From an uncultured bacterium (GTDB lineage: Bacteria > Krumholzibacteriota > Krumholzibacteriia > Krumholzibacteriales > Krumholzibacteriaceae), in assembly GCA_964599375.1 (NCBI GenBank), contig CAZREW010000006.1, forward strand, positions 28,285-92,284: 64,000 bases of DNA, written 5' to 3'. The translations under genes were made by a program, and so were the position numbers. Under the pieces are notes generated by a model. The model had not been told where the DNA came from. It ran no database searches and saw only the letters and a program-made list of their open reading frames with translations. Shown in pieces: positions 17,098 to 43,093 of the stretch; within the stretch, counting starts at the first letter, position 1; every line of letters starts with the position of its first letter.

Positions 17098-19785
17098 ATG
17101 AAAAAGAACGTGTTCTCCGAATCACGCATCGTCCACAGGATCTTCCTCCTGCTCATCGTGTTCGCCGTCGCCGCCGCGGTACTCATCCCCGAGTCGTCGC
17201 CTTTCGCGAAGAACCCTTACAGGAGGGAGTTCTTCAGCCAGCACCCCGAGGCTGTAGGAACGGCGATAGACGACGTGCCGAGCAATCCGGGCCACTGCGG
17301 CGTATGCCACTTCGACTTCAGCGGATCGGCTGCACGGAATCCTTACGGCCTCTCGGTAGAGGTCGGGTTGAACAACGGACTGACGATAGCCCAGGCGATA
17401 GCCGCGGTTGAATATAATGACGCCGACGGCGATAATTACACAAATCACACTGAAGCGACCGATATCGCGGGATTCTCGAACACCTCGACATTCCCGGGCC
17501 TGAATATCAATAACTATACCCTGGCGGTCAACGTCGACCTCGCCGACATAGTCGGATATCTCACGCCGACCGGCGCAACCGACACGATCCCGCCTTCGGT
17601 GGCCGTGAACGACCCGATGGGCGGAGAGGTCCTCCAGGCCGGCACATACTATTCCGTACTGTACGACGCGAACGACAATACGGGCGTGGACCATGTGAAC
17701 ATCTACCTTTCCGACGACAGCGGCGCTGAATGGTTCAAGACTGTCGCGAAAAACGAGACTCCGGGCACGGGATTCTCCTGGTTCGTCCCGAACTTCCCCG
17801 GAGATTTCAACAGGATAAGGGTCGAGGCCGTAGACATCGCCGCCAATAAGGGCAGCGGCGAAAGCATGGGCGATTTCACGATACTATCCACACCCCCGGG
17901 CTACGTCCCCTCGTCGCTGAGGGACATGGAGCTCCCCGGCACACAGCCTCACGAAGGAGCCATCCTCGACGATCCCGACGTTTCGTGCGCGACCTGCCAC
18001 GGTAACTACGACTCGAACGCCGAACCTTGGTACAACTGGCGAGGCTCGATGATGGCACAGGCGCAGAGGGACCCCATCTTTCTCGCGTGCGTCACCGTAG
18101 CCGAGCAGGACGCGCCTTCCGTAGGAGACATCTGCATAAGGTGCCACTCCCCGGGCGGCTGGCAGGAGGGCCGCTCGATCGACACCAGCGGCGAGATGAT
18201 CAACTCCAAGGACAGGCACTCGGTCCAGTGCGATTTCTGCCACAGGGTGGTCGACTTTAACTACGTCGCCGGGGTGAGCCCGGCGGTCGACGCCGAGGTA
18301 CTCGCGGATATCGACCCGCTTCCGCTCGCTTTCGCGAACGGGCAGTTCATAAACGATCCTTCGCCGCTCAAGCGCGGCCCTTATGCCGACGCCGAAGCGA
18401 GCCACCAGTTCGTCGAGTCTCCGATCCACAGGTCGTCGGAGATGTGCGGCATTTGCCACGACGTGAGCAACCCGGTGTTTCTCCACGTATCGACGGCCGA
18501 TTACGTACCCAGCGACTTCGACGCGGAACATCCCGACATGGACCTCAGGAACATGTTCCCCATAGAGCGCACTTACAGCGAGTGGACTCAGAGCGAATAC
18601 GCGTCGACCGGCGTATACGCCCCTCAGTTCGCCGGGAACAAGGCGGACGGGATCGTCTCATCCTGCCAGGACTGCCACATGAGGGACGTCAATGGCAAAG
18701 GCGCCAACGCCATCGGAGTCAACGACAGGGCGGATCTCGGGCTGCATGATTTCACCGGCGGCAACACGTTCATGCCTTCGACTATTGCGGACAAGTTCCC
18801 CGACGAGGTCAGCCTCGCCCAGCTGCAGGATGCGGAGGCCCGTGCAAGATACATGCTCCAGAACGCGGCTTCAATGACGGTGACTCCCGAAGATTTCGGC
18901 ATAACGGTCAGGGTCACGAACGAGACTGCGCACAAGCTCCCTTCAGGATATCCTGAGGGCCGCAGGATCTGGCTCAACGTCGTCGCTCTCGACGCGGCCG
19001 GCACCCCGATCTACGAGTCGTGCGCCTACGACAACGAGACGGCCGATCTATCGCACGACTCGCAGGCGAAGATATACGAGATCAAACCGGGCCTGAGCCC
19101 CGGTCTGGCTGACGCCCTTGGCCTGCCGGCCGGCAAGTCGTTCCACTTCGTCCTGAACGACACCATTTACGCTGACAACAGGATCCCGCCGAGGGGGTTC
19201 ACGAACGCCGGGTTCGAAAGCATCCAGTCGCCGGCGGTCGCGCATATATACGAGGATGGCCAGTACTGGGACGACACCCCATACTTGCTCCCGGTCGAGT
19301 CCGACTCGGTCATAGTCACTCTCTACTACCAGACGACATCGAAGGAATACACGGAGTTCCTGCGTGACGAGAACGAGACCAACTCCTCCGGGCAGGATTT
19401 CTACGATTCTTGGGTGGCGCACGGAAAGTCGGCTCCGGAGATCATGGTCCGCGTAAGGGCCGCGGTCAATGTGACGGTGACCGACGACGAGGTCGCCGGA
19501 ACGCCGCTGATCTACAACCTCGAGCAGAACTTCCCCAACCCGTTCAATCCGGCGACAAGGATCGATTACTCGATCGCGGAAAAGGCTCATGTCTTCATCG
19601 CCGCCTACGACGTTGCAGGAAGGCGGGTCAGCGTGATCGTAGACGCCGAGCAGGAACCTTCGCGCTACTCGGTGACATGGAACGGCACCGGCGACGACGG
19701 ACGCGCTCTATCCTCGGGTATTTATTTCATAAGATACCGTGCGGGTGGGTACACGTTCACAAGGAAGGCGGTGCTTCTGAGATAA
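17098..19785 (+). CDS. Multiheme c-type cytochrome (six CxxCH) with C-terminal T9SS (Por) sorting domain
   Basis: Signal peptide. CxxCH at CGVCH, CATCH, CIRCH, CDFCH, CGICH, CQDCH. C-terminus QNFPNPFNPATRIDYSI...GIYFIRYRAGGYTFTRKAVLLR matches the T9SS type-A CTD. Confidence 0.8.
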   Translation: MKKNVFSESRIVHRIFLLLIVFAVAAAVLIPESSPFAKNPYRREFFSQHPEAVGTAIDDVPSNPGHCGVCHFDFSGSAARNPYGLSVEVGLNNGLTIAQAIAAVEYNDADGDNYTNHTEATDIAGFSNTSTFPGLNINNYTLAVNVDLADIVGYLTPTGATDTIPPSVAVNDPMGGEVLQAGTYYSVLYDANDNTGVDHVNIYLSDDSGAEWFKTVAKNETPGTGFSWFVPNFPGDFNRIRVEAVDIAANKGSGESMGDFTILSTPPGYVPSSLRDMELPGTQPHEGAILDDPDVSCATCHGNYDSNAEPWYNWRGSMMAQAQRDPIFLACVTVAEQDAPSVGDICIRCHSPGGWQEGRSIDTSGEMINSKDRHSVQCDFCHRVVDFNYVAGVSPAVDAEVLADIDPLPLAFANGQFINDPSPLKRGPYADAEASHQFVESPIHRSSEMCGICHDVSNPVFLHVSTADYVPSDFDAEHPDMDLRNMFPIERTYSEWTQSEYASTGVYAPQFAGNKADGIVSSCQDCHMRDVNGKGANAIGVNDRADLGLHDFTGGNTFMPSTIADKFPDEVSLAQLQDAEARARYMLQNAASMTVTPEDFGITVRVTNETAHKLPSGYPEGRRIWLNVVALDAAGTPIYESCAYDNETADLSHDSQAKIYEIKPGLSPGLADALGLPAGKSFHFVLNDTIYADNRIPPRGFTNAGFESIQSPAVAHIYEDGQYWDDTPYLLPVESDSVIVTLYYQTTSKEYTEFLRDENETNSSGQDFYDSWVAHGKSAPEIMVRVRAAVNVTVTDDEVAGTPLIYNLEQNFPNPFNPATRIDYSIAEKAHVFIAAYDVAGRRVSVIVDAEQEPSRYSVTWNGTGDDGRALSSGIYFIRYRAGGYTFTRKAVLLR

Positions 19786-21235
19786 CCGTCTTTACAGGAT
19801 CCCGATGCCGGTCGGGATCGATATTCATCCTCTTGAGCTTCTTGAGAAGGCCCTGGCGGGTTATCCCCAGGGCCTTCGCAGTGCGGGTTCTGTTTCCCCC
19901 GAAACCCTCCAGCGCATCCACGATCATCCTTCTCTCGAGCCGCATCACGGCCTCGGGCATCGTACCCGCTTCCAGACCGGAATCCGTTACGGGAAGGATG
20001 CTCCCGCGCCCTTCCGGGATCCCCAGCATCGAGGCGGTGATCCTCACGGAGCCCGGGTTCATCGTCAAAACCCTCTCGATCTCGTTTCTCAGCTCTCGGA
20101 CGTTGCCCGGCCAGCGATAGCCGATGAGCCTGGACAGGGCTCCAGCGGTCATCGAGACGGGACGGCCGCTGAGCTGGAGCGAAGACTCGCGAAGGAACCG
20201 CGCCGTCAGGACCGGGACATCCTCGCTCCTCTCCCTGAGCGGCGGGATATGCAGCCTGACAGCACTGAGCCTGAAGTAGAGGTCCTCCCTGAATCTCCCC
20301 GCCCGGACAAGCCCCTCGAGGTCGCGGTTAGTGGCGAACACAAACCGCACATCGACCTTTCTGCTCCGCCCTTCGCCGAGCCTGCGTATCTCTCTCTCCT
20401 GAAGCACACGGAGCAGCGCCGCCTGAAGATGGACGGGAAGCTCCCCGATCTCGTCGAGGAAGAACGTCCCGCCGCCGGCCGCCTCGATCAGCCCCTCGCG
20501 GTCGCGGTCGGCCCCTGTGTAGGCTCCCCTGGCGCTTCCGAACAGCTCGCCCTGGAGAAGGCCCGCCGGCATCTCGAGGCAGTTGACCGCTATGAACGGC
20601 CCGGCGCGCCTCGGCCCGAGCGAATGGATGTTCCTTGCGACAAGCTCCTTGCCCGTCCCGCTTTCCCCGCATATGAGGACATGGATCCTGCCGGCGGCGA
20701 CCTTCCGGATGTCCTCCCTGAGAGAGACGATCGAAGGGGATATCCCGGCGATCGGCGGATCGAAGGGGCGGCCCCCTCCGGCCGCCGCCCCACATCCGCC
20801 GTGACCGGGCGCCAGAACATCGGCCAGCGGGAGAAGATGCTCGAGAAGCCCGAGCAGCTCACCAGCGGCAGAGATCCTTCTCGGAAGGAAGGACGGCGTC
20901 ATCTCGTTGAGCTCGAGGTCGAGAGAGACGGACATGCCTGCGAGCCTGCGCTCGAGGCGCCACTCGTTCCCGTATCCGCTCCCGTCCATCCGCCACACGC
21001 CGAACCCCCCCGCGGTCGATGCCGATTCCCTCAGGGCAAGTTCGGCGCTCTGGTCGGCGGGTACTCCACCGCATATCTCCAGGCCCGGCCCTCCCGGACC
21101 GGGTTCTCCCAAATATAATCGCAGGCGGGCCGCCGAGGCGCCGCACGCGCTGCAGAGAAGCCCCAGGCATTCCTTTATCGCCTTCCTCACCAGGTACTCT
21201 CCCGTCTCTGCTTCTGGTCCCCGCCGACACTTCAC
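19757..21235 (-). CDS. Sigma-54-dependent transcriptional activator (EBP) with N-terminal sensory domain and Fis-type HTH
   Basis: GESGTGKE Walker A, GAYTGA variant of the GAFTGA loop, ESELFGxxxG-type region, RFREDLYFRL, C-terminal HTH. The true start is uncertain (GTG at 21235; internal ATGs possible). Confidence 0.8.
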   Translation of the reverse strand: MKCRRGPEAETGEYLVRKAIKECLGLLCSACGASAARLRLYLGEPGPGGPGLEICGGVPADQSAELALRESASTAGGFGVWRMDGSGYGNEWRLERRLAGMSVSLDLELNEMTPSFLPRRISAAGELLGLLEHLLPLADVLAPGHGGCGAAAGGGRPFDPPIAGISPSIVSLREDIRKVAAGRIHVLICGESGTGKELVARNIHSLGPRRAGPFIAVNCLEMPAGLLQGELFGSARGAYTGADRDREGLIEAAGGGTFFLDEIGELPVHLQAALLRVLQEREIRRLGEGRSRKVDVRFVFATNRDLEGLVRAGRFREDLYFRLSAVRLHIPPLRERSEDVPVLTARFLRESSLQLSGRPVSMTAGALSRLIGYRWPGNVRELRNEIERVLTMNPGSVRITASMLGIPEGRGSILPVTDSGLEAGTMPEAVMRLERRMIVDALEGFGGNRTRTAKALGITRQGLLKKLKRMNIDPDRHRDPVKTVISEAPPSL

Positions 21236-21464
21236 AAGGCAATCCCCGTACCGGCACAGAGAGAGATCGAAAACGCGTTGCGGCAGAGAAAGTTATCCTG
21301 AAACTTCGGCCCGGCCACTGCCGGAATGCCGTCGACTTCTCGACAGTATGAATTCCTTGACTTTGCCAGGAGCCTGTGAATACCATGCCTTGACCCGGAT
21401 AACCGGGTGTCAAATATCTGACTAGGTGGTATTGACCCGTTTCCCGACCTGGAAGGAGGACTGT

Positions 21465-23450
21465 ATGGCCGATGAGTTCAAACCATATGTGTCCGCCGAG
21501 ACAAAGATGAAGGAGTTCACGCTGCCGGCTATCATATTCGGCGCGATACTCTCAGTCATCCTAGGAGCGGCGAACGCCTACCTCGGCCTCGTGGCGGGCA
21601 TGACGGTGGCGGCAACGTTCCCGGCAGCGGTCATGGCCATGGCGGTGCTCAAGCCGCTCAAAGGCACGATCCTCGAGGAGAACACATGCCGTACCACGGC
21701 CGCGGTCGGCGAGGCCGTAGTCGCCGGCGCGATCTTCACGATCCCGGCGTTCCTGATCGCCAAGAACCCCGCGACGGGAGAGCCTATCTGGGAAAACATC
21801 CACTACTGGGAAAGCACTTTCCTGATGCTGGTCGGCGGCATCCTCGGCGTGTTCTTCGTGATCTTCCTAAGGCGGGTGCTGATCGACGACAAGTCGCTCC
21901 CCTTCCCCGAGAGCGTCGCCTGCTCGGAGATCGTCAAGGCGGGCCAGGGAGGGGCGACAGGCGCCAAGTATGTCTTCGGGATGATCGGCGTCGCCGCGCT
22001 TCTCGAGCTCCTGAAGAACAGCTTCGGCCTCCTCATGATCAAGGGATACATCAGGCACTTCTGGGTCCTGCCGACCGTGAAGAACTTCAGGCTGATGACA
22101 AGCGATCTGAAGGCGATCACAGCCGGTTCCAACCCGACCGGGGGGATCTTCGTCGAGTCGCCCGAGGCCTCTCCCGCGATGCTCGGCGTCGGCTACATCA
22201 TCGGCCCGAAGCTCGCCGCGATAGTCTTCGCGGGCGGTGTGTTCGGCCACATGATGATGACGCCGCTGTTCATCTTCATTGCCGGGACATTCGGGCCCGG
22301 CACCGACTGGATGGAGACCACCGGCGCTGTCTGGAACTCGCAGGTCCGCCCGCTCGCGGTCGGCGCGATGCTCGTAGGCGCGTTCTACACCCTGTTCAGG
22401 ATGCGCAAGTCACTCGGAACGGGGATGTCGAGGGCGTTCAAGGACCTCAAACAGATCGGCAAGGTCAAGGAAGGCGCCGAGACGAGCCGTATCGAGAGGG
22501 ACGTCCCCTACTCGATCACGATCATCGGCATCATCGCCCTGGTCATACCGATCTTCTTCCTCTACTGGTACTTCAGCGGCAGCATCATCGGGGCGGCCGT
22601 CTCGGCGATCGTCATGACGGTCGCGGGATTCCTCTTCGCCGCCGTAGCCGGCTTCCTTGTAGGGACGATCGGCTCGAGCAACAATCCGATCTCGGGTCTG
22701 ACGCTTTCGACCCTTATCGTGGCGGCGATACTGATGGTCGCCGTGGGGGTCAAAGGAGCCTTCGGCGTCGCCGCTGTGCTCGGAGTGGCGGCCGTGGTCT
22801 GCTGTTCGAGCGGCGTGGCCGGGGACATCATCCAGGACCTCAAGGCCGGGCACATCCTCGGCGGTACTCCACGGGCGATGGAGCTAGGCTGCATCATCGG
22901 GGTAGTGGCGGCGGCGTTCGTAATGGCGCTTGTCCTCCAGCTCCTCCACACCGGGTACGCTTCGACGGGGGGCATCGGCGGGACCGACCTTCCCGCGCCG
23001 CAGGCCGGACTGATGGCGATGCTCGCACAGGGCATCATCACCGGGCAGATGGCCTGGCCGCTCGTGATCATGGGGGCTATTTTCGCGGTCGCCCTCATCC
23101 TGATCGGCGCTCCTTCGCCGATGCTGATCGCGGTCGGCATGTACCTGCCGTTCCACACCACTTCGGCCATCTTCATCGGCGGGATCATCAAGTGGTTCGC
23201 CGACGGATACATCAAGAAGCGCAAACTCAACAAGGAGAAGGCGGACAACACCGGGATCCTCCTCGCCTCCGGCCTTATAGCGGGCCAGGCCCTGATGGGC
23301 ATCCTCATCGCCGCGACGGTCGTCGCCGGCGGCGGCGAGGGCATACTGCCGGCGATCATCAAGGGCGGCAACCCCTGGCTGGCGCTTATCGTCTTCGCCC
23401 TTCTCGCGTGGATCCTGATAAGGATCCCCGCCAAGAGCGCGTCAGAGTAA
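21465..23450 (+). CDS. OPT-family oligopeptide transporter
   Basis: ~16 TM helices. N-terminal region MADEFKPYVSAETKMKEFTLPAIIFGAILSVILGAANAYLGL is typical of the OPT superfamily. GGAAGGAGGA RBS before ATG 21465. Confidence 0.8.
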   Translation: MADEFKPYVSAETKMKEFTLPAIIFGAILSVILGAANAYLGLVAGMTVAATFPAAVMAMAVLKPLKGTILEENTCRTTAAVGEAVVAGAIFTIPAFLIAKNPATGEPIWENIHYWESTFLMLVGGILGVFFVIFLRRVLIDDKSLPFPESVACSEIVKAGQGGATGAKYVFGMIGVAALLELLKNSFGLLMIKGYIRHFWVLPTVKNFRLMTSDLKAITAGSNPTGGIFVESPEASPAMLGVGYIIGPKLAAIVFAGGVFGHMMMTPLFIFIAGTFGPGTDWMETTGAVWNSQVRPLAVGAMLVGAFYTLFRMRKSLGTGMSRAFKDLKQIGKVKEGAETSRIERDVPYSITIIGIIALVIPIFFLYWYFSGSIIGAAVSAIVMTVAGFLFAAVAGFLVGTIGSSNNPISGLTLSTLIVAAILMVAVGVKGAFGVAAVLGVAAVVCCSSGVAGDIIQDLKAGHILGGTPRAMELGCIIGVVAAAFVMALVLQLLHTGYASTGGIGGTDLPAPQAGLMAMLAQGIITGQMAWPLVIMGAIFAVALILIGAPSPMLIAVGMYLPFHTTSAIFIGGIIKWFADGYIKKRKLNKEKADNTGILLASGLIAGQALMGILIAATVVAGGGEGILPAIIKGGNPWLALIVFALLAWILIRIPAKSASE

Positions 23451-23467
23451 GACTAGAGTCGTTCAAT

Positions 23468-23982: not shown

Positions 23983-23997
23983 TGGCACCATAAATGC
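23983..23997 (+). promoter_or_regulatory. Candidate sigma-54 promoter (TGGCAC-N5-ATGC; GG-N10-GC)
   Basis: Perfect -24 TGGCAC and a -12 TGC at the correct spacing, ~57 nt upstream of ATG 24054. Confidence 0.5.
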
Positions 23998-24053
23998 CAT
24001 TATACTGGATATCTTGCACCTTTCTCGCGGTAGATTGCGGGAGTTGAAAAGAA

Positions 24054-26245: not shown

Positions 26246-26770
26246 CTACGGTCCGAGGACCTCGTATCCACTGACCTCTACAGCATCACCATCGCCCATT
26301 ATCCCCCAGATCCAGGCGCGATGGCCGCCGAAAGCCTCCAATGCCGCTGTCAGAGGCCCTGTCAGCATATACCCGATGTCTTCGGAATTCAACAGGATCG
26401 TTTCGCCGGATATCGAGATCCTTCCCATCACCACGACCATCCCTTCCGGGGGGACCAGTAAATAGCTTTCGACCCTGGCATCTCTCTCGCCACCCCTTCC
26501 CGGGACACCGGAGCAGGTAAGCACAACATCATATCCGTCGAGAAGGCTCAACTCTGCCTCCATCCCCCCGGGGTCGAGGTTCCACTTCACGCCCTGCGGA
26601 TCGGAGAGGACGATCACCCTGTCGAAAGGATGGTCGCCCTCGACCCTGATGGAGCCTTTTAGCTGAAACCGTTCTCCCGATGAAGTGGCGGGTGGAGTGG
26701 AGGCGCATGAGACCGTCGCCAGTAGGATCAGAGCTATCAGAATATCACTGGATCCTGATAAGAGCCGCAT
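26246..26770 (-). CDS. Hypothetical lipoprotein
   Basis: Signal peptide with lipobox ATVSCAS. No recognisable domain. Confidence 0.5.
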   Translation of the reverse strand: MRLLSGSSDILIALILLATVSCASTPPATSSGERFQLKGSIRVEGDHPFDRVIVLSDPQGVKWNLDPGGMEAELSLLDGYDVVLTCSGVPGRGGERDARVESYLLVPPEGMVVVMGRISISGETILLNSEDIGYMLTGPLTAALEAFGGHRAWIWGIMGDGDAVEVSGYEVLGP

Positions 26771-28658: not shown

Positions 28659-28813
28659 TTTATCTACCTCGGGCCGAGGACTTGCCGTGCGTGGCCGCGC
28701 GGATTGTGACGCCCCGCAGGGCCAGCAGATACAACTGTTCAGGAAGATAACAGTTTCGACCCGCCCTTTCAATCCCGACGGAAGCGCCCGCATGGCCAGA
28801 TTCTACGTAATAA

Positions 28814-28828
28814 GGCATATATCTTGCA
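28814..28828 (+). promoter_or_regulatory. Possible sigma-54 promoter (AGGCAT-N5-TTGCA)
   Basis: GG-N10-GC spacing is correct. The -12 TTGCA is perfect but the -24 is imperfect. Lies ~55 nt upstream of ATG 28883. Confidence 0.3.
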
Positions 28829-30633: not shown

Positions 30634-30694
30634 CTTATACCGGTGCAGAGATCGAAAGTAGTTTTTAACCAAAGACCCCAAGGAGGTGGGAGAA

Positions 30695-31272: not shown

Positions 31273-31300
31273 AAAACCCTCTCTTTTGAGAGGGTTTTTT
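31273..31300 (+). terminator. Intrinsic terminator
   Basis: AAAACCCTCTC-TTTT-GAGAGGGTTTTTT. Confidence 0.8.
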
Positions 31301-31337
31301 ATTGATTTTCTCAAAGTACTTCTTAAAATCCCATTCC

Positions 31338-34300
31338 ATGGTTGAGAAGTATGGATTTCCTTTAAGGTACAGCAAGTTATCGACACTGGGTTCTGGTGGA
31401 ATCGGAACGGTTTTCAAAGCTTTCGACTCCCAACTTGACAAAGAAATCGCCATAAAGATTCTGAATAATCTAGATCGCGATCTATCAGCTTCTTTAGAGA
31501 ACGAATTCTCCACGCTGATCTCGCTGAACCATCCCAATTTGATAAAGGTATATGATTTCGGTCAGAGTGATTCAGGGCATTCATACTTCACTATGGATTT
31601 AATTCATGGGCAAAATTTAAATGATTATTTCTCATCTTCTTTGAAAGTCAGTTCTACCACTGATATTCTCGTGGGCATTCTTGATGCCCTTAGCTATTTG
31701 TCAAAAAGAAACATAATACACGGAGATATCAAACCTGAGAACATACTCATTCCTGATGGAAACGATTCACACCCAGTGCTTGTAGATTTTGGGCTTGCTC
31801 TTATTGCAGATTCAAATCAAGACAAAGTGTTCGGGACACCAAGATTTCTTGCTCCGGAGATCCTGTTATCAAAACAGTATTCCTCAAAAAGCGATCTTTA
31901 TGCTCTTGGACACACATTTATAGAAAGCTTAACAAAGCACAAGACAGTACTTGCTCATGAGTTGACTGATAGTTATCTAAGCGATGCATATGAATCTCTA
32001 TGTTACCTCTTCGAAGAGAGGGACATTGAATATCCGAGGAATCTAGCTTCATTCATTGTCAGTCTCTCCAATCCATCTCTTTCTTTACGTCCAGACACTA
32101 TTTCACAAGCTATTCTTAAACTATCGACAATTTCTACGCCTTCATGCGAAGCAAACACAATTCTTAACCCTGAATACGTTGCTCGAGAAGAAATCGACAA
32201 TTCTATTGAAATATTTATAGATAAGAACAGTTTTGACAATAGATCTCTTTTACTTGAAGGCCCTATTGGTACCGGAAAGAGAACACTGATGGGAAGAGCT
32301 ATCAGTAAAGCTCAGTTATTGAAATTCAAGGTTTTAATGTATAGCGATATTCCTGAAGAAAGATTCTCTCTAAATGTTTTTATAGATTCGCTCTCAATGA
32401 ATCTGCCTGCTCCGCTGAGTAATAATTTGTTTGAACAACACAACCGACTTTTAAATAGCATCAAGAAGGCTGAAGCAACTCCAGACCTTGATAACCTGGG
32501 AGTAATTTATAGCAATATCATTGAACATATTTCGCTCCTTTCAAAGGAACAGCCGGTATTAATCGTTATTCCAAACATCGAAAGTCATGGAACTGATACC
32601 TTAAGATTTATCAAGCACTTAGTAGACGAAATAGACTATCTCGGCGCGAAGGCAAAGATTCTCTTATCTCATTCAACAGATCACATTCGTGACAACACTT
32701 TTTACGAACAACTAAGTTCGCTTAAACACAATCTATCTCTCCTACATATTCGAGGATTTAGTGCATCAGAAATAAAACAGTACTGTCACAATATTTTTGG
32801 ATGCGATTTGTTTACAAATGGAGAAATCAATTCCTTTTTGTCTATCACAAATGGGAATCCTCAATATCTTTTCGACTACTTAAACTACCTGATAATGAAC
32901 GGAATCATTACTAAGAATGAGCGAACATATTATGCGGACCATAAACAAATAAATAGGACATATTCTCTGACTAGAAATGATGTAATCGTTGATAGTATAA
33001 TTTCTCATTTACTCCCTGATGAATTGCATTTCCTTCAATTACTTTCTATTTATGATTATCCAATTGACATCACTCATATGAAATTTTTTATCTCCTATGA
33101 TCTGCCAACTATAATCGATACTTGTGAAATTGCATCATTAATAGAAACGCACAACGGCATAATATGTTTGAAGTCCCCAGCCTTTAAATATCACCTCAAT
33201 AATAATATTAATGATTCTTTACAAATATCGCTTAATCGAATCCTTGCTGATTATTCAGTTAAAGCTAACCCAAATAACTACGCATTAATAGCAAATCATT
33301 ATATCAAGGCGCATGCAATAGATGAGGCCTATGAATACGCAACCAGAGCATATGAAAAGCACCTTGCGCAACATGAGTATTATTCAGCCTATAATCTATT
33401 TGTTTCTCTTAGTAATTTGATTGAAGACATTAATAGTACAGAGATCAAAATTGATATATTGGAAAAATTGAGTTCTCTGGAGTTCACACTGGGGTATTCA
33501 GACGATTCTCTAAATAACTATTTAAAGCTAATAGATATATCTACTGACCAAATTTCTATTGCTAGGTATTACAACAAAATCGGGCGTATAGAGCGCTACT
33601 TCAGAGGAAATACGAATAAGGCAGTCGAATATTTTAATCGTGCTCTTGACATAGCCAAAAAGAATGCAGCAACTGAAGTTGAAGCCGAGGCATTGCTGTC
33701 TCTTGGACTCGCATTACAAAATGCTTCGTTTGTGGAAGCATCAGCCGATCTTTCTAAAGGAATTCTTTTAAATCAATATGTTCGTGCTTTAGGAATAGCT
33801 ATGCAATTGTACACTTTTTCAGGGAATTCAGAGAAATGCCAAACAATTGAGGTAGAACTTGATAGGTACCTCTCAACCGATGATCCAACTATTCTTTCAT
33901 ATATATACGATGCAAAATACCTATACTCATTCTATACAGGTGTCTATTCGGTAGCTGACACCATGCTTCGAAACCTTATCGATCTTGCAAAACGCTCATT
34001 TAATGAAACGGCGCGCATCCGACACCTGAATGCTCTGGGAAGCATATATTACTCTCAAGGCAAATTTAGGCTCCAAATCGATACATTAAGGAATGCTTAT
34101 CATCTTGTTAATAAATATCAATTCCCCCTGCATAGAATACTGACTCTTTCCAACATGGCATTAGCCCATGTTGCACTTGCAGAATATTCAATAGCCATTC
34201 GGTTGATTATCGAAGTTAGATCATACGCAGAAAAGCATAAGTTGTCTAATATACCAACTTACCATTATTCTATTGGAGCTGGAGCATTCATGCCACTCGG

Positions 34301-34934
34301 CAAACTACAAAACGTTAATTTTCATAGATATCTAGAGTTGCTCAAGGAAACAGCGGAAAAGTCCAAAAATATTATCAGCCTTGGCCACATGGATCTTAAA
34401 TATGGAGACTATTACTACTTTGCAGATCAGTCCAATGATTCGAAGAAACATTATTTAAAGTCAATCGACATTTTTCGAACCACGAACGCCAAAGACGACA
34501 TGCTGGAGGCTTTGCTGAAGCTTTCGCTTGTGCACAGGAACATTAACGATCACAAAATGGCGCATGACTATGCGAGGCAAGCGGCGAAGATATTCAGGGA
34601 GATTAATTGCGGGTATCTGAAGCCGCTGTACAGCTATGTCATGGCGTTGAACGAGTGCCACGATGATCCCGAGTCCCTGGCCCCGATGCTGGAGGCGATA
34701 AACGTCTCCAGGGCATTCGGGACCAGGGAGTGGACATGGCAGATCCAGTTTCACCTGGCGCGGCTGTACAGAGAGGCTGGCGACATCTCCAATTCAGTGA
34801 AATACTGCAGGGAATCGATCAACACCCTCAAGGAGATAACCGAATCGTTCGACGATCCGGACCAGACATCCTCCTACCTGCAGGTGCCGCTCAGGCGTCA
34901 GGTCTTCGATTTCGTGAAGTCCTTGAGATCCTGA
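31338..34934 (+). CDS. Hanks-type Ser/Thr protein kinase fused to STAND/AAA-like NTPase and TPR repeats (PknK-like architecture); AT-rich, mosaic GC
   Basis: Kinase motifs GSGGIGTVF, IAIKIL, HGDIKPEN (non-RD), DFGLA, GTPRFLAPE. P-loop LLEGPIGTGKRT. Long TPR-like C-terminus. The first ~3.15 kb is AT-rich and the last ~450 nt are GC-rich. ATG 31338 preferred over TTG 31302, which overlaps the upstream terminator. Confidence 0.8.
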   Translation: MVEKYGFPLRYSKLSTLGSGGIGTVFKAFDSQLDKEIAIKILNNLDRDLSASLENEFSTLISLNHPNLIKVYDFGQSDSGHSYFTMDLIHGQNLNDYFSSSLKVSSTTDILVGILDALSYLSKRNIIHGDIKPENILIPDGNDSHPVLVDFGLALIADSNQDKVFGTPRFLAPEILLSKQYSSKSDLYALGHTFIESLTKHKTVLAHELTDSYLSDAYESLCYLFEERDIEYPRNLASFIVSLSNPSLSLRPDTISQAILKLSTISTPSCEANTILNPEYVAREEIDNSIEIFIDKNSFDNRSLLLEGPIGTGKRTLMGRAISKAQLLKFKVLMYSDIPEERFSLNVFIDSLSMNLPAPLSNNLFEQHNRLLNSIKKAEATPDLDNLGVIYSNIIEHISLLSKEQPVLIVIPNIESHGTDTLRFIKHLVDEIDYLGAKAKILLSHSTDHIRDNTFYEQLSSLKHNLSLLHIRGFSASEIKQYCHNIFGCDLFTNGEINSFLSITNGNPQYLFDYLNYLIMNGIITKNERTYYADHKQINRTYSLTRNDVIVDSIISHLLPDELHFLQLLSIYDYPIDITHMKFFISYDLPTIIDTCEIASLIETHNGIICLKSPAFKYHLNNNINDSLQISLNRILADYSVKANPNNYALIANHYIKAHAIDEAYEYATRAYEKHLAQHEYYSAYNLFVSLSNLIEDINSTEIKIDILEKLSSLEFTLGYSDDSLNNYLKLIDISTDQISIARYYNKIGRIERYFRGNTNKAVEYFNRALDIAKKNAATEVEAEALLSLGLALQNASFVEASADLSKGILLNQYVRALGIAMQLYTFSGNSEKCQTIEVELDRYLSTDDPTILSYIYDAKYLYSFYTGVYSVADTMLRNLIDLAKRSFNETARIRHLNALGSIYYSQGKFRLQIDTLRNAYHLVNKYQFPLHRILTLSNMALAHVALAEYSIAIRLIIEVRSYAEKHKLSNIPTYHYSIGAGAFMPLGKLQNVNFHRYLELLKETAEKSKNIISLGHMDLKYGDYYYFADQSNDSKKHYLKSIDIFRTTNAKDDMLEALLKLSLVHRNINDHKMAHDYARQAAKIFREINCGYLKPLYSYVMALNECHDDPESLAPMLEAINVSRAFGTREWTWQIQFHLARLYREAGDISNSVKYCRESINTLKEITESFDDPDQTSSYLQVPLRRQVFDFVKSLRS

Positions 34935-36503: not shown

Positions 36504-38996
36504 TCACGTGCGGCGGTAGTACCTGTCGAGGCCCGTCTTCTTCAGCTCCTTGTACAGCTTGCCTCTAGAGATCCCCAGCCAGCGCGCCGCCGCGCTCTTG
36601 TTGCCCCTGCAGATGTTCATCGCGCTCTCGATCCTGCGCCTGCTGCTGTCGCCGTTTCCCTGGAAATCCAGATCATGCGTACCTGCCGGAACTCCAGTCA
36701 TCCTGTCAGGCAGCATCTCGATCGTGATGGGAGAATCGCTCGCATAGCAGCTCAACCTGTCAGCGATCGATATCAGCTCTCTGACGTTGCCGGGCCAATG
36801 ATATTTCTGGAAGACAGAGAGCACGCCCCGGTCGATCCGCACCGTTCTTCCGCCGTTACCGTTGCCGTTTCCACAGAGGCGCCAGACCATAAGGGGGATG
36901 ATATCCTCACGGCGGTCACGCAGCGGAGGGATATGGATCCTTTCCGAGTTGATCCTGAAGAAAAAATCCTCCCTGAGCGACAAATCGCTCAGTTTGCTTC
37001 CTAGATCCTGATTCGTGGCTGAGACCAGTTTTATATCGACCTCTTGCTCGCCGTTCTCCCCGAGCCTTCTGATCCGCCCTTCCTGCAGCACCCTGAGCAA
37101 CTTGGCCTGGTGAAGCGTCGACAGCTCCCCCACTTCATCGAGAAAGAGCGTGCCTCCACTCGCTTCCTCGAAGAAGCCACGCCTGTCAACGACGGCGCCG
37201 GTGAACGAGCCTTTCCTGTGCCCGAAGAATTCGCTCTCGAAGAGATGGTCCGGGATCGCAGCGCAGTTGACGGCTACGAAGGGACCCGAAGCCCTCTCGC
37301 TCGAATTGTGGATCAGCCTGGCGACAAGCTCCTTTCCCGTTCCGGTCTCTCCCGTCACCAGGACCGGCCCCCTATATGACGCCGCGAACTGTATCCTCTC
37401 CCAGACATCGTGCATGACGGGCGATACGGCTACCATTCCGTTGCAGACCTTGTAGTCGCTCGAGAAACCTACCTCTATCAGATCTGAGTCAGTTTCACCG
37501 CTCTGGTACAGCCTGGCGGGCACCGCGCCGCCCCGTCTTTCGTGGCCGAGCAGGCTGTCTACCCGATCGACCATGAGCTGTGCGTTCATACCGGCGAAAA
37601 GATGGCGGGCTTCCCAGAGCAGGCTCCAGGGCTCAACCGCCTTGCTGTTTCCCGTGATCTCCGCCTTTTGGGCCTTATCCGTCCTCGACAAAAGGGTCTC
37701 CGCATATATGAGGCAGGTCCTGGCCAGCTCGAATGTGCTTCCCGATCTCCTGATAAGAGCCTGCGCGCGCTCAAAAAGTGCCTTTACGGTGTCGAGATCC
37801 ACGCGGCAGGCTTCCGCCCTGCCCATGGCCCTGAAGACAAGACCCAGCTCAAGTGGAGCGTCCAGTCCCCCGGCAATGCTCTCTGCATCCTCGAGACGAT
37901 CCCTTGCCGCTTTAATATCGCCCCGCGCGATCTCGAGCTCGCCCGTCTTCCTGGCGATCTCAGCGGCCACGTCACCGACGGGGGCAATCTCCGACACGAT
38001 GTCCCGAGCCCGGGCCAGGCAGTTCTGCGCCATCACCAGATCGCGCCTGCTGATGTGTATCGAAGCTATGCCGGACAGGGACAGGGCCAGTTCTCGCCTG
38101 TAGCCCTGCTCCTTCGCGAGCCGGGAGGCGTCCGAAAAGAGCTCGAGCGCCTCATCGAGGGCATCGCGCCTGCTGGCCGCGTTTCCCAGGGCAATAAGGC
38201 ACCTGCACCTGCCGATATGCCAGTTTACACGCTCGAAGAGCGAAGTGGCCTTGATGAACGACCGCTCGGCCGAGTCGCTCTCGCCCATGTGGAACTGCGT
38301 TATTCCGAGATTGAGCAGGGCTGCCGCGAGGCCGTACTCATCATCGTTCTTCGAGCATGCGGCAGCCGCCCTTCTGAGGTCGTCGGCGGCTTTTCTCATG
38401 AAGCCGAGCCTTCTGAGGACGAGCCCCATCATCGTCAGGACCCTGGCTCTCAACTTCCAGCTCGACACCGAAGTCGTAAGCCCTAGGGCGGTCTCGAGGA
38501 TCTCCCTGGCACGCAGGGTATCATCGAGGAAATAGCAGCAGGCTCCCTCGATAAGGTATTTCTCCCCCGCCAGCGTTCCGTCGAGACAGTTCTCGACCGA
38601 CCCATCCATATCATCAAGCTCCTGCAGCGCGGCGCGGTATTCTCCCTGCCTCCTGAGGATATTCGCCCTGATCACGGCTGCTTCATAACGCTCGCAGCAG
38701 GCGTCGACCTCGACTGACCGGATAAGCTCTGCAAGCATGTCGAGGTATATCGAGCTTTCGTCGAATCCGCTCAGATAGTAGGAGTTCCTGGCAGCGAGAA
38801 GGAGGACGCGCGCTTCCATCTCGAACGGGACAGGCTCCCGCTCGATGGCGGACAATGCCTCTCTCGTCGCTATAAGCGCACTCCTGTAGTCACCTGTGGC
38901 CTGGTGGCCCTGCGCTTCGGTTATGTACCTGTCCACGGTCTCGTGTCGTTTACGCATGGTATCGGTCGGCCCCGTGCTATCTGAATATCGGTCCAA
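36504..38996 (-). CDS. Sigma-54-dependent activator with large N-terminal TPR-repeat domain (TPR-AAA+-HTH)
   Basis: ETGTGKE, GSFTGA, FFFRINSERIHIPPLRDRRED, C-terminal HTH. ~480-aa N-terminal region of TPR-like helical repeats. Confidence 0.8.
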   Translation of the reverse strand: MDRYSDSTGPTDTMRKRHETVDRYITEAQGHQATGDYRSALIATREALSAIEREPVPFEMEARVLLLAARNSYYLSGFDESSIYLDMLAELIRSVEVDACCERYEAAVIRANILRRQGEYRAALQELDDMDGSVENCLDGTLAGEKYLIEGACCYFLDDTLRAREILETALGLTTSVSSWKLRARVLTMMGLVLRRLGFMRKAADDLRRAAAACSKNDDEYGLAAALLNLGITQFHMGESDSAERSFIKATSLFERVNWHIGRCRCLIALGNAASRRDALDEALELFSDASRLAKEQGYRRELALSLSGIASIHISRRDLVMAQNCLARARDIVSEIAPVGDVAAEIARKTGELEIARGDIKAARDRLEDAESIAGGLDAPLELGLVFRAMGRAEACRVDLDTVKALFERAQALIRRSGSTFELARTCLIYAETLLSRTDKAQKAEITGNSKAVEPWSLLWEARHLFAGMNAQLMVDRVDSLLGHERRGGAVPARLYQSGETDSDLIEVGFSSDYKVCNGMVAVSPVMHDVWERIQFAASYRGPVLVTGETGTGKELVARLIHNSSERASGPFVAVNCAAIPDHLFESEFFGHRKGSFTGAVVDRRGFFEEASGGTLFLDEVGELSTLHQAKLLRVLQEGRIRRLGENGEQEVDIKLVSATNQDLGSKLSDLSLREDFFFRINSERIHIPPLRDRREDIIPLMVWRLCGNGNGNGGRTVRIDRGVLSVFQKYHWPGNVRELISIADRLSCYASDSPITIEMLPDRMTGVPAGTHDLDFQGNGDSSRRRIESAMNICRGNKSAAARWLGISRGKLYKELKKTGLDRYYRRT

Positions 38997-39387
38997 ACAG
39001 CATCTGCAGCGTAATCAACAATTTAGTTTTCACGCGGGAACGCCCCGCCCCTGCCTTGCGACCGGTTTCCCGGTGCCCCCCTGTGATTGCGCTGTCCACG
39101 CCACCTGTCGTGGACGAATATGACCCTCCGATAAGATCCCGGGAGAGCCCGGGCTCCACAAATGGGTCCACTGTCAGATGCGGATCCTCTCCTGGATCTG
39201 CCCCGACGGTTTCGCCGAAGATCGTATATTTTCCGGCGATGGGAGACCTGGCATGCACCGCCCCGGAGAGCGGAAACAGAAGTGTGGCGGCGATAAGGGC
39301 CAGGACTGAAAATGAAAAAAGGCGCCTGATACTGCTTCTCATAAGCAACGCTCCTGTCGCTTTCTGTCGCGACCGGATGTCGATCAT
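38977..39387 (-). CDS. Possible small secreted protein
   Basis: An internal start MRSSIRRLFSFSVLALIAATLLFPLSGAVHA gives a signal peptide. Gly/Ser/Thr-rich. Could be a spurious ORF in the promoter region. Confidence 0.3.
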   Translation of the reverse strand: MIDIRSRQKATGALLMRSSIRRLFSFSVLALIAATLLFPLSGAVHARSPIAGKYTIFGETVGADPGEDPHLTVDPFVEPGLSRDLIGGSYSSTTGGVDSAITGGHRETGRKAGAGRSRVKTKLLITLQMLFGPIFR

Positions 39388-39752
39388 CTTAGTGAAAAAC
39401 CCTGTATCAAACCGCCATGGGCAATCGCTTTCTTGTCATGTAATTTTATCATATAATGGGTATCCGGGTCAACCCGCCTCAAATTTTAATGCACGCGTAA
39501 AAGAAATATTCTTGGGTGTAATATTTTTCTATAATTAGTGGAAACTATTATTTACATTTGTTATAATCATTTTACAGTTGTGTATCTCATTATGTTATTG
39601 ATTGTTAACAAACGTTTCCGGTGGTGAGGTAAATTGTTCTTTACCAATAAATGGGATGCCCGTGGTGAATCCGGGCGGCCGCGTGTGGTGTCCTCTGGTT
39701 TATCATATTGCAATAAATGCAGTTGCAAGCATTGTTTCCGGCCCACAAATGA

Positions 39753-39767
39753 TGGCACGCACCTTGC
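39753..39767 (+). promoter_or_regulatory. Sigma-54 promoter (TGGCAC-GCACC-TTGC), consensus match
   Basis: Perfect -24/-12 elements with N5 spacing, inside a ~500-nt AT-rich leader, ~130 nt upstream of ATG 39899. Confidence 0.6.
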
Positions 39768-39898
39768 GGAAGTAATCAATGCCAGTAAACTGTACTTTAC
39801 ACCATGAGTCAGCACCGCCCGGACTGCATCAATTATCGATGTAACCTGTTGAAAAGACAGGGCCGGGGAAAAACCGGATAAAGGGGGTTTCCGGTAAG

Positions 39899-41548
39899 AT
39901 GAGCACGAAAAAGAAGGACCCGACGAAGGATTTTTACGAGGATGTCGAGAGTGACCTCGACCATCTCGAGGGATCAGTAGCGGTCAGACAGAGCAAGGAT
40001 ATTTCGGGCCAGCTCGCTGAAAGCAGGCATCGCGTGCAAAAGCTCGAGATGCTGACAGAGATCACGCAGGCGATGAACTCGACCCTCAATCTCAACGAGC
40101 TCCTGTCGCACATCGTCGATTCGACGATCAAGATCGCCGACATGGACCGCGGGTTCCTGATGCTCAGGAACAAGGCCGGCGAGCTCGAGTTCCGGATAGC
40201 GAGAAGCAGCAGGCAGCAGAATCTCGGCGAAAACGACTTCGAGGTCAGCCATACGATCATAGGGGAAGCCGCAGACAAGGGCAAACCCCTCTTCATCTCC
40301 AATCTGGACAAGAACGGCAGGTACAAGGACCAGGAGAGCGTGCTCGACCTGCAGCTCAAGACTGCCGTCTGCCTCCCCCTTATACGCGACGATGTGGTGA
40401 TCGGCGTCATCTATACCGACGCCAGCAGGCTCAGTATCGAGATCGAGAAGGAGGACATGCCGATCTTCGAGGCATTTGCCGTCCAGGCTGCGATCGCGAT
40501 CGAGAACGCGCGGCTTCACGGCGAGCTGCTTCTTTCCAAGGAGAACCTCACAAGGGAGAACCTCGAGCTCAGGGCGGTCCTTTCCGAGAAGTACGAATTC
40601 TCCGGTATAATCGGCAAGAGCAAGGCGATGCAGGAGATCTTCACCACGATAAGGAAGATCTCCCCGTTCGATACGACCGTCCTGATCACCGGTGCCACAG
40701 GGACAGGCAAGGAGCTCATTGCCAAAGCCATCCATTTCAACGGTCCCCGCAAGACGAATCCTCTGGTCACGATAAACTGCGGAGCGATGGCGCCCGAGCT
40801 CCTCGAGAGTGAGCTCTTCGGACACAAGAAGGGGTCGTTCACAGGCGCAGTCAGCGACAAGCCCGGACTGTTCGAGACCGCAAGCGGCGGCACCCTCTTT
40901 CTAGACGAGATAGGCGACATGCCGCAACCGCTGCAGGTAAAGCTCCTGCGCGCCCTTCAGGAAGGTGAGATAAGGAGGATCGGGGAGAATACAAACCGTC
41001 ACGTGGATGTCCGGGTCATAGCAGCGACAAACCGCGACCTCAAGGAGGACATCGAGGCCGGCAGGTTCCGCCAGGACCTCTACTACAGGCTCAACGTGGT
41101 CCCCATCACCATACCGCCTCTGAATGAGAGGGGGGAGGATATACTGCCCCTGACTCAGCATTTCCTCGAGAAGTACTCCGCGAAGATGAACAAGGGCGAA
41201 GTCGGGATAGCCCCCGATGTCATGAAGATGATACTTGCCAATCCGTGGCCCGGTAACGTAAGGGAGCTCGAGAACACTGTCGAGAGGGCGCTCGCGCTCT
41301 GCGGCGACTCCACCACCCTGTCGATGATCCATTTCCCGCAACTCGGTCACGGCGGCCTAATACTAGGCGGCGTGGATTCTGGACGTTCGCTGAAGGAAAA
41401 GATGCGGGTGGTCGAGAAGCAGTTCATCATCGAGGCCCTGGAGGAAACGGGCGGAAAGATAACTAGGGCGGCGGAACTGCTTGATGTGACACGTCAGCAC
41501 CTTCATAATAAGATCCGGCAGTACGAGCTCAACAGAAAGAAGCGCTGA
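39899..41548 (+). CDS. Sigma-54-dependent activator with N-terminal GAF domain
   Basis: GAF-like region (GFLMLRNKAGELEF...VCLPLIRDDVVIGVIYTD), GATGTGKE, GSFTGA, RFRQDLYYRL, C-terminal HTH. Confidence 0.85.
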   Translation: MSTKKKDPTKDFYEDVESDLDHLEGSVAVRQSKDISGQLAESRHRVQKLEMLTEITQAMNSTLNLNELLSHIVDSTIKIADMDRGFLMLRNKAGELEFRIARSSRQQNLGENDFEVSHTIIGEAADKGKPLFISNLDKNGRYKDQESVLDLQLKTAVCLPLIRDDVVIGVIYTDASRLSIEIEKEDMPIFEAFAVQAAIAIENARLHGELLLSKENLTRENLELRAVLSEKYEFSGIIGKSKAMQEIFTTIRKISPFDTTVLITGATGTGKELIAKAIHFNGPRKTNPLVTINCGAMAPELLESELFGHKKGSFTGAVSDKPGLFETASGGTLFLDEIGDMPQPLQVKLLRALQEGEIRRIGENTNRHVDVRVIAATNRDLKEDIEAGRFRQDLYYRLNVVPITIPPLNERGEDILPLTQHFLEKYSAKMNKGEVGIAPDVMKMILANPWPGNVRELENTVERALALCGDSTTLSMIHFPQLGHGGLILGGVDSGRSLKEKMRVVEKQFIIEALEETGGKITRAAELLDVTRQHLHNKIRQYELNRKKR

Positions 41549-41580
41549 GCGATTCATATCCTTTGCGCTGGAGGATGGCC

Positions 41581-42063
41581 ATGGAACTGAAGACGGTGAA
41601 GATCGAGAAGCCGTCGGAGATCAACTTCATCCTCGGACAATCTCATTTCATCAAAACAGTGGAGGATCTCCACGAGGTCGCGATAGCCTCAGCCCCCGGG
41701 ATCAAGTTCGGCATAGCATTCTGCGAGGCTTCCGGGGACTGCCTGATCCGCATCTCGGGTAACGACGACGAGATGGTAGAGCTGGCCAAAAGCAACGCCG
41801 CGGCGATCGGGGCGGGACACTCGTTCATAATGTTCATGAAGGATGCGTTCCCGATACACATCCTCAACGCGGTCAAGGATGTCCCTGAGGTCTGCGGCAT
41901 ATTCTGCGCGACAGCAAACCCGGTCGAGGTCATAGTCGCAGTGTCGAAGCAGGGCCGCGGGATACTCGGCGTCATCGACGGAGAAAAACCGAAGGGCACC
42001 GAGGACGAAGAGGGAAAGGCCTGGCGGCACGACATCCTGAGGAAATTCGGATACAAGCTCTGA
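41581..42063 (+). CDS. Adenosine-specific kinase family (PF04008-like) protein
   Basis: MELKTVKIEKP...ILGQSHFIKTVEDL...GIKFGIAFCEASG...IGAGHSF...CATANPVEV...GRGILGVIDG pattern. GGAGG 6 nt before ATG 41581. Confidence 0.55.
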   Translation: MELKTVKIEKPSEINFILGQSHFIKTVEDLHEVAIASAPGIKFGIAFCEASGDCLIRISGNDDEMVELAKSNAAAIGAGHSFIMFMKDAFPIHILNAVKDVPEVCGIFCATANPVEVIVAVSKQGRGILGVIDGEKPKGTEDEEGKAWRHDILRKFGYKL

Positions 42064-42082
42064 CGCCGGCGATCATGACCGG

Positions 42083-43093
42083 TCAGCAGTCCTTCTTCTC
42101 CCGTAACACTATGCCGTGCCTGCGCATACGATACAGGAGAGTCGTCCTCTTCAGGCCGAGGATCGACGCCGCCCTGCTGTGGTTCGACCCAGCCCTCCTG
42201 AGGGCGCCCAGTATCTCCTCCCTCTCAAACCTGCGGAGCTTTCCGTCGAGCCCTGTCTGGTCCCCGGGCGTGGGATCGAGGAGACCGGACACTATCCCTG
42301 CCGGGAGATCCGTCATCTCGAGCCTGCCCGAACACTTTCTCAGGGCCGCCGCGACTACCTCGTTCTGAAGCTGCCTGACATTGCCCGGCCAATCGAACGA
42401 CTCGAGGGCAAGCTGTGCCGCGGGCGAGACCGTCAGCGGCCCTATCGAGTATTCAGAGACCAGGCGTGATATGAAATGAGAGGAGAGAGGCATTATGTCG
42501 GCTTTGCGCTCACGCAGCGGGGGAATCCGGAAAACGACCGCGGACAGCCTGTAATACAGGTCGTCCCTGAAGGAACCCAGCTCTATTTCAGCTGGCAGGT
42601 CGCGGTTTGTGGCCGCGACGACCCTCGCGCCAGATCTTCTCGCGACACTCTCGCCTACAGGCATATACTCCCCTGAATCGAGGAATCTCAGGAGTCTTGC
42701 CTGGGCCCCGGGATCCGCTTCACCGATCTCATCGAGAAACAGCGTACCTCTGTCGGCTGCGGCGGCGAGGCCGGACTGATGCCTCACGGCGCCGGTGAAC
42801 GCTCCCTTGACATGACCGAAAAGGAAACTCTCGAACAGGTCTCCACGGAGAGTGGAAGCATTAACGGGGATAAAAGGGGATCTCGCCCTGCCGCTCCATC
42901 TGTGGATAAGCCTGGCAACGACTTCCTTGCCCGTGCCGGACTCTCCCGTTATAAGGACCGGCACCGGAAACGGGGATATCCTGCGGATCTCATCGAGGAG
43001 TCCCTTCATGGCTGGATCAGCTGTGATGAAGGCTGGCGATTTTTCCTTCTGCATATCGGTCGGTCCGCCCAGCCGGATGCCCGCATCCGACAC
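42083..43093 (-). CDS. Sigma-54 activator lacking a sensory domain (AAA+ plus HTH only; PspF/HrpS-like)
   Basis: GESGTGKE, canonical GAFTGA, FRDDLYYRL, C-terminal HTH. Only ~25 residues precede the AAA+ core. GTG at 43093 has GGGGGAG 7 nt upstream; ATG 43054 is an alternative. Confidence 0.8.
   Translation of the reverse strand: MSDAGIRLGGPTDMQKEKSPAFITADPAMKGLLDEIRRISPFPVPVLITGESGTGKEVVARLIHRWSGRARSPFIPVNASTLRGDLFESFLFGHVKGAFTGAVRHQSGLAAAADRGTLFLDEIGEADPGAQARLLRFLDSGEYMPVGESVARRSGARVVAATNRDLPAEIELGSFRDDLYYRLSAVVFRIPPLRERKADIMPLSSHFISRLVSEYSIGPLTVSPAAQLALESFDWPGNVRQLQNEVVAAALRKCSGRLEMTDLPAGIVSGLLDPTPGDQTGLDGKLRRFEREEILGALRRAGSNHSRAASILGLKRTTLLYRMRRHGIVLREKKDC

Follow-up and report, generated by a model that had tools for sequence, protein, structure and literature searches.

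The stretch of DNA analysed here, 64,000 nucleotides in length and referred to below as the window, derives from an uncultured bacterium of the Krumholzibacteriota and carries a group of five genes for enhancer-binding proteins (EBPs) of the sigma-54 type, designated E1 to E5, together with a small set of -24/-12 promoter elements, designated P1 to P5. From left to right, E1 (19757-21235, minus strand) stands divergently to the gene of an OPT transporter (21426-23450), which is followed by a PqqD-like gene, a small gene and the gene of a lipoprotein with a TIG domain (26745-28658, minus strand). Divergently from the last run E2 (28883-30346, plus strand), the gene of a ZU5-like lipoprotein (30695-31246, plus strand) and that of a PknK-like kinase (31302-34934, plus strand). 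After two further small genes come E3 (36504-38996, minus strand), E4 (39899-41548, plus strand), an adenosine-kinase-like (AdoK-like) gene (41563-42063) and E5 (42083-43093, minus strand). The 33 kb concerned form a tidy and fairly ordinary regulatory island, every part of which is of a well-known kind.

The gene map was obtained with a codon-usage caller and annotated by means of Pfam, NCBIfam and the gene calls of matching contigs. The G+C content of the window is about 57.5-58%, its proteins have exact matches among metagenome contigs, and their closest named relatives belong to metagenome-assembled genomes of Candidatus Krumholzibacteriota and Latescibacterota. For comparison, orthologous loci were fetched and labelled (L008, L088, L170 and others); the metagenome scan made with E2 returned mostly paralogues and 7 orthologous loci only.

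All five EBP open reading frames (ORFs) gave Pfam matches to Sigma54_activat (E 1e-57 to 1e-72), AAA_lid_14 and HTH_8, and a scan of all six frames across the window revealed no sixth loop of the GAFTGA type. The L1 loops read GAYTGA in E1, GAFTDA in E2, GSFTGA in both E3 and E4, and GAFTGA in E5, in exact agreement with the preliminary description of this DNA, which had proposed an unusually dense sigma-54 circuitry. In the alignment of the AAA+ cores, which that description had suggested as a check, the Walker A and Walker B motifs, sensor I, the arginine fingers and the WPGNVRE element proved intact in all five proteins, and the pairwise identity amounted to 36-49% only. Judged by this low identity, the five are old paralogues, with no recent expansion or duplicates among them. 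None reached the cut-off of an NCBIfam equivalog, so that no named orthologue can be assigned; likewise, NCBIfam provided no equivalog for E1 and no names for the unnamed target genes. By their intact cores, their helix-turn-helix (HTH) domains and loops of types known to work, the five ORFs are complete EBPs, and ATP-dependent activation of the sigma-54 holoenzyme is predicted for them from domains and motifs.

The loops deserve a closer comparison with published data. In each of them position 3 is aromatic and position 4 is Thr/Ser, and the remaining changes are of tolerated types. Validated activators have been listed with A2 replaced by S (LevR), F3 by Y (TouR) and G5 by D (FlgR of Campylobacter), and the critical residues of the loop were reported to be the central Phe and Thr (Francke et al., PMC3162934), rather than the Gly-Ala pair to which the sigma-54 contact had been ascribed at first. 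Both GAFTDA, present in DVU2106, and GSFTGA occur among the variants that keep activation, and a regulon has been assigned to DVU2106 (Kazakov et al., PMC4641369). GAYTGA, GSFTGA and GAFTDA are thus ordinary, published functional variants. The GAFTDA loop, which had been singled out as notable, was found in all 120 E2 homologues among the matches listed, 51% to 100% identical to E2; since it is invariant there, it is to be regarded, on the sequence comparison, as a family trait of E2 and not as a defect.

The sensory modules of the five proteins differ, as had been noted: E1 has no known domain, E2 a receiver fold, E3 a tetratricopeptide repeat (TPR) region, E4 a GAF domain, and E5 none. The N-terminal region of E1 (about 160 residues) matched nothing in Pfam or the PDB; it is poorly conserved and is absent from the L170 orthologue. 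Orthologues of E1 were found in L088, L170 and L171, the loop being GAFTGA in the last two. The AAA+ domain of E5 begins at residue 23, after 22 residues. The E5 orthologue of L008 is a protein of 630 aa with an extra N-terminal domain of 310 residues, of which no remnant was found in the window.

More can be said of the N-terminal domain of E2. It has no Pfam match; a profile built from 18 orthologues, compared with the PDB, matched the receivers RR468, CheY and PhoP over the full length (E 1e-5). The AlphaFold2 (AF2) model of the domain showed a (beta-alpha)5 fold (pLDDT 87), and Foldseek aligned it with the receivers of CheY, PhoP and NtrC1 (TMq 0.65-0.75). The position of the phospho-acceptor Asp is occupied by Ala or Ser, the position of the conserved Lys (Lys109) is variable, with Met in the window, and neither these two positions nor those of the acidic pocket are among the conserved columns. 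The domain as modelled is therefore a pseudo-receiver. The assignment of E2 as a canonical NtrC-type response regulator, considered in view of the fold, was rejected on account of these positions. The Walker A motif of E2 is GxxGTGKG rather than the GKE form.

The promoters were searched for with a 16-column position weight matrix (PWM) that approximates the published consensus. Exactly five matches of at least 10.5 bits were present among the 128,000 positions (64 kb, both strands), and they are the five sites which the preliminary description had picked out by hand; no other site in the window outranks them. P1 (TGGCACCATAAATGCC, 23983-23998, plus strand, 11.2 bits) lies 56 bp before the gene starting at 24054; P2 (AGGCATATATCTTGCA, 28813-28828, plus strand, 15.0 bits) lies 55 bp before E2; P3 (TGGCACCCGCGTTGCC, 30619-30634, plus strand, 10.9 bits) is located 61 bp before the ATG of the ZU5-like lipoprotein gene; P4 (TGGCACGCACCTTGCG, 39753-39768, plus strand, 14.6 bits) is located 131 bp before E4; and P5 (TGGCATAATTACTGCA, 52158-52173, minus strand), with 16.5 bits the best match of the window, precedes the HD-GYP gene by 78 bp. 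P2, which had been called weak, is in fact the second-best match and the best conserved.

All five sites have the GG-N10-GC form, are intergenic and co-oriented with the following gene, and lie 52-131 bp before a start codon. Only 4.9% of all positions combine an intergenic place and the proper orientation with a start no more than 300 bp away, and the probability that five of five fall among them is about 3e-7. A cruder rule (TGGCAYR-N4-YTGCW, at most one mismatch) gave three matches, each upstream of a gene. Dinucleotide shuffles of the intergenic DNA gave 0.08 matches of at least 14 bits against three observed and, at the threshold of 10.5 bits, 0.87 against five, with a maximum of four in 300 shuffles. 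The sixth-ranked match (11188, plus strand) lies inside an Omp85 ORF with CGGCA as the -12 context and was taken as a chance occurrence. Two further candidates were rejected, one near E1 (21238), which leaves only 3 bp before the start codon, and one at 36198, before the gene 35950, with a score of 8.4 bits. No convincing sigma-54 site was seen in the other intergenic regions of the island, and E1, E3 and E5 are accordingly without sigma-54 promoters; among the EBP genes these are found ahead of E2 and E4 only.

Comparison with the relatives provided a phylogenetic footprint. P2 is kept in all ten orthologous loci, and its GGCA...TTGC elements are the only invariant block in the intergenic alignment. 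P3 is likewise kept in the ten loci which have the lipoprotein gene, where TGG...TTGCC and the ribosome-binding site are invariant; the copies in L094 and L096 score weaker at an unchanged position. P5 is conserved before two of three HD-GYP orthologues, at -80 in L173 (protein 76% identical) and at -72 in L174 (72%), and P4 was found in a single close relative, L088, in the form TGGCACATACCTTGCG. The putative target gene of P1 is absent from L088, L170 and L171, and the L091 locus, with a partial homologue, does not extend to the region upstream of it. From matrix score, position and footprint together, at least four -24/-12 promoters, P2, P3, P4 and P5, are judged to be real. P1 remains a candidate only and is not significant by itself, so that four of the five sites proposed by hand are upheld by their conservation in relatives. 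The matrix scan, named in the preliminary description as a possible refutation, came out in favour of its observations; its interpretation is borne out in part.

The best-defined part of the island is the unit formed by E2 and its neighbours. The gene behind P3 has a strong ribosome-binding site (AAGGAGGTG) and encodes a lipoprotein of 183 aa, the conserved sigma-54 target of that promoter, belonging to a family of 109 members which are all from Krumholzibacteriota or Latescibacterota. G24-C25, with the lipobox Cys, and H173-F174-S175 are invariant, the HFS motif being found without change in 42 sequences, just before the last strand. The AF2 model of the protein is a beta-sandwich, for which the top 17 Foldseek matches are ZU5-containing structures of ankyrin and UNC5b (E 9e-6). 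The motif in its longer form, LxHFSxY, is also invariant and lies 9 residues from the C-terminus, which corresponds to the position of the self-cleavage site in the ZU5 region of PIDD. As modelled, this bacterial lipoprotein may cleave itself; its gene adjoins that of a STAND protein.

Directly after this gene there is an intrinsic terminator (31273-31298, plus strand) with an 11-bp stem and a T run. It was recognised in six loci, in which the stem sequences differ yet still pair. With the strong ribosome-binding site before it and the terminator after it, the lipoprotein gene represents a monocistronic sigma-54 unit, the kinase gene probably being transcribed separately. The kinase is a PknK-like Ser/Thr kinase with matches to Pfam Pkinase, NPHP3_N/AAA_16 (STAND NTPase) and TPR, and is predicted to be cytoplasmic. 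Its gene has 38.5% GC and occupies the same syntenic slot in six loci; in four of these (the window, L088, L091 and L089) it is AT-rich, and in L170 and L096 it is not. It is fast-evolving, with 53% identity in L088 as against 75-94% for the neighbouring genes. Metagenome contigs tend to break at this gene. Its classification as a defence system was considered and dismissed, as the PADLOC matches span the generic kinase domain only.

The divergent partner of E2 in eight loci is the TIG lipoprotein gene, the start of which is likely at 28658, revised from 28793. The product contains an IPT/TIG domain (Pfam TIG), a LSGC lipobox and the sequence HEFEH at residue 430; this has the form of a zincin motif and is accompanied by a weak match to the MXAN_6640 family of putative metalloproteases.

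The order of the island, from E1 through the OPT, PqqD-like, small and TIG lipoprotein genes, the divergent E2, lipoprotein and kinase genes and the two small genes to E3 and E4, is repeated in full in L088, where E2 is 83% identical, and through to E3 in L170, where E2 is 56% identical. L171 retains E1 through E2. Orthologues of E3 are found in L088, L170 and L008, and the last locus retains E3, E4, the AdoK-like gene and E5 without E1 or E2; the order E4, AdoK-like gene, E5 is kept in L008 and L009. In L089, a complete genome, only the TIG lipoprotein, E2, ZU5-like lipoprotein and kinase genes are present. E2, P2 and P3 are found together even where no other EBP gene lies within 10 kb (L089, L172). 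Seen in this comparison, the island is an inherited one, assembled from separable modules. About 93 kb of DNA of the lineage chosen regardless of EBPs (the window outside the cluster, L173, L174 and L175) contained one EBP gene; against this baseline, a rough one limited to these loci, five EBPs in 23 kb are a real local cluster.

Several other genes complete the picture. The putative target of P1 (24054-25874, plus strand) encodes a lipoprotein of 606 aa with a signal peptide and Cys18, about five divergent internal repeats and recurring NCRT...EEFA...NGGxYP blocks; it has no Pfam or NCBIfam match. The target of P5 (50767-52080, minus strand) encodes a membrane-bound protein with the Pfam domains MASE9, HD_5 and HD, HD at residue 284, GYP at residue 345 and four transmembrane (TM) segments, which by these domains and motifs is predicted to be an HD-GYP-type phosphodiesterase of cyclic di-GMP. 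A perfect 12-bp palindrome (TGGATATATCCA, 52185-52196, minus strand) follows GCAATTGC and lies 12 bp upstream of the -24 element of P5; neither L173 nor L174 has kept it. Genes for a SpoIIE-type PP2C phosphatase and, next to each other, for two STAS-domain proteins (3705-5021 and 48728-49454, both minus strand) belong to a partner-switching system and are situated within the transcription unit of P5 or close to it. The complete Latescibacterota genome L175 has a GAF-type EBP, 48% identical to E4, located 4.5 kb from an HD-GYP/purM pair, and a 15-bit -24/-12 site (13531-13546, plus strand) 316 bp upstream of that EBP gene.

Upstream of E3 there is a gene for a conserved small secreted protein with a PGEDPHL motif (38977-39342, minus strand), aligned across three loci, and a plus-strand ORF called on some contigs (39056-39538) is probably spurious. 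A membrane protein of 526 aa, with at least nine TM segments and no family match, is encoded on the strand of E5, immediately upstream of it (43452-45032, minus), and is 76-80% identical in L008 and L174. The gene at 17098-19785 (plus strand) encodes a protein of 895 aa with weak matches to multihaem cytochromes (MtrC-like, cytochrome c7) and a C-terminal Por_Secre_tail, a sorting domain of type IX secretion.

The observations lead to a likely picture of a chromosomal island in which five anciently diverged EBPs lie among the genes they control, for the most part lipoproteins and envelope proteins together with the HD-GYP phosphodiesterase, and in which E2 autoregulates and drives the lipoprotein gene. 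E1, E3 and E5 are presumably made from ordinary promoters, and transcription of E2 and E4 by the sigma-54 polymerase would create positive feedback. Since the phospho-acceptor Asp is missing from its receiver-fold domain, E2 would not be switched by a histidine kinase. The protein most likely attaches to the DNA ahead of P2 and P3 and would remodel the closed sigma-54 complex by ATP hydrolysis, thereby raising its own level and driving a short transcript with a strong ribosome-binding site that encodes the ZU5-like lipoprotein and ends at the terminator. The TIG/HExxH lipoprotein and the PknK-like kinase, which travel with the E2 unit, may supply the signal. Autoregulation of E2 and activation of the lipoprotein gene are most likely the correct reading of this unit, and the simplest one, because E2 and both promoters always co-occur, even without a nearby EBP. 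Lipoprotein targets also agree with the view, set out in the literature, that sigma-54 governs the exterior of the cell (PMC3162934). Several observations weigh against this picture. The matrix was not a curated one, and P1, with its 11.2 bits, falls within the range of the shuffles (0.63 matches of at least 11 bits per shuffle). P5 is absent in L175 and P4 is absent before the E4 orthologues of L008 and L009 (63-64% identical), which makes both links clade-specific. No Sigma54 domain, as expected of rpoN, was present in the scanned genes of the window (the last two genes, 62653-63991, lay outside the scan). The k-mers shared by the P2 and P3 regions in ten loci yielded no common upstream activator motif, and the assignment of an EBP to a promoter consequently rests on co-occurrence only; inverted repeats, as possible activator sites, were also sought within each promoter region, and none was conserved.

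It might be supposed that the -24/-12 matches are due to chance. The consensus TGGCAC-N5-TTGCW with up to two mismatches occurred 14 times against 17.1 expected, a count at chance level, and P1 alone would not contradict it. The placement of all five top matches upstream of genes in the proper orientation, and the retention of P2, P3 and P5 while the surrounding intergenic DNA has diverged, make the supposition hardly credible in general, and for these three promoters it is already refuted. Nearly as improbable is the view that GAFTDA represents a lost sigma-54 contact and E2 a sigma-70-type regulator or a repressor, like TyrR. The sole doubt in print concerns VfmH of Dickeya, which carries the same loop and for which an interaction with sigma-54 was undetected (PMC10714721); FlgR, a validated activator with the same replacement, and DVU2106, listed as retaining activation, speak against it, as do the intact F3 and T4 of E2 and the two conserved -24/-12 elements that flank every E2 orthologue.

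The arrangement of the five genes raises different questions. They may be neighbours without functional meaning, five independent one-regulator circuits brought together by chance and inherited jointly, a reading which is less probable than not and still deserves serious attention: the cores are old paralogues at 36-49% identity, and the modules do occur apart, E2 with its module alone in L089 and E3 to E5 without E1 and E2 in L008. Against it stand the order E1, OPT, PqqD-like, TIG, E2, lipoprotein, kinase, E3, kept at about 50% identity of the orthologues, and the fact that two of the EBP genes themselves depend on an EBP to be transcribed. This last feature would also fit a hierarchical cascade, in which E1, E3 and/or E5 would respond to signals by activating P2 and P4, with E2 and E4 as the second tier; the autoregulation suggested earlier for the GAF-type EBP is thus compatible with the position of E4, and also of E2, behind a sigma-54 promoter without being the only explanation. 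The cascade would account for sigma-54 promoters at E2 and E4 only and for the company kept by E1, E2 and E3 down to 56% identity of E2 and by E3, E4 and E5 in L008, and would have its like in the development of Myxococcus xanthus, where EBPs co-regulate in a cascade. The retention of P2 in L089 and L172, both without a further EBP within 10 kb, and the lack of shared upstream motifs render it rather unlikely. Autoregulation by E2, with the five EBPs set among their targets, is preferred.

It is tempting to speculate further that the E2 unit constitutes a phylum-specific signalling device. A pseudo-receiver EBP with a fixed GAFTDA loop and a conserved sigma-54 promoter of its own would have one tightly controlled product only, a ZU5-like lipoprotein that cleaves itself. 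The divergent TIG/HExxH lipoprotein would accompany them, as would the fast-evolving, AT-rich STAND kinase, which in place of a histidine kinase would control the EBP through the degenerate receiver; the ZU5-like lipoprotein would be a cleavable envelope signal or sensor. This proposal is a long shot. If true, ZU5 and a STAND protein would be found paired in a bacterium, recalling NLRP1/CARD8.

No paper on sigma-54 in Krumholzibacteriota was found in the literature, and the island provides a first worked example of such circuitry in this candidate phylum, which has no cultured member. What is known in principle of sigma-54 regulation gains nothing new from it. Variant loops, GAFTDA among them, are better taken for family traits than for defects. 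Four promoter-gene pairs are directly testable, and E2, P2, P3 and the ZU5-like lipoprotein make up a compact module suited to reconstruction in a heterologous host.

Compared with known systems, the five proteins resemble the EBPs of the NtrC/PspF/NifA class (PF00158) in their AAA+ core, Walker A and B motifs, L1 loop of the GAFTGA type, arginine fingers and C-terminal Fis-type HTH, and also in the variety of their sensors (receiver-like, GAF, TPR, or none as in PspF); E2 differs from that class in a receiver without the acceptor Asp and in the Walker A sequence GxxGTGKG. The natural GAFTDA loop with the G5 to D replacement is shared by E2 with FlgR of Campylobacter/Helicobacter and DVU2106 of Desulfovibrio vulgaris, although the likeness is confined to the loop, the sensor domains and regulons being unrelated. 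EBPs of the FleQ type possess a receiver-like N-terminal domain that is non-phosphorylatable. E2 is similar to them in having a receiver fold without the phospho-acceptor, which would imply control by partner proteins or ligands, but shows no match to the Pfam FleQ domain among the families listed for it.

The lipoprotein finds its closest parallel in PIDD, whose self-cleavage takes place at HF/S, immediately behind the ZU5 domains (PMC3210808), and in the HF/S site of Nup98, with which it has in common a ZU5-like beta-sandwich and the invariant HFS before the last strand; in contrast to PIDD it is a bacterial lipoprotein with only 9 residues after the motif, without UPA or death domain, and its cleavage is a prediction. 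The island as a whole recalls the developmental network of M. xanthus and the regulome of D. vulgaris, with its 37 EBPs, in which a genome holds many EBPs, EBP genes also stand behind sigma-54 promoters and the targets belong to the envelope or cell exterior. The five described here differ in forming a physical cluster that is syntenic across a candidate phylum.

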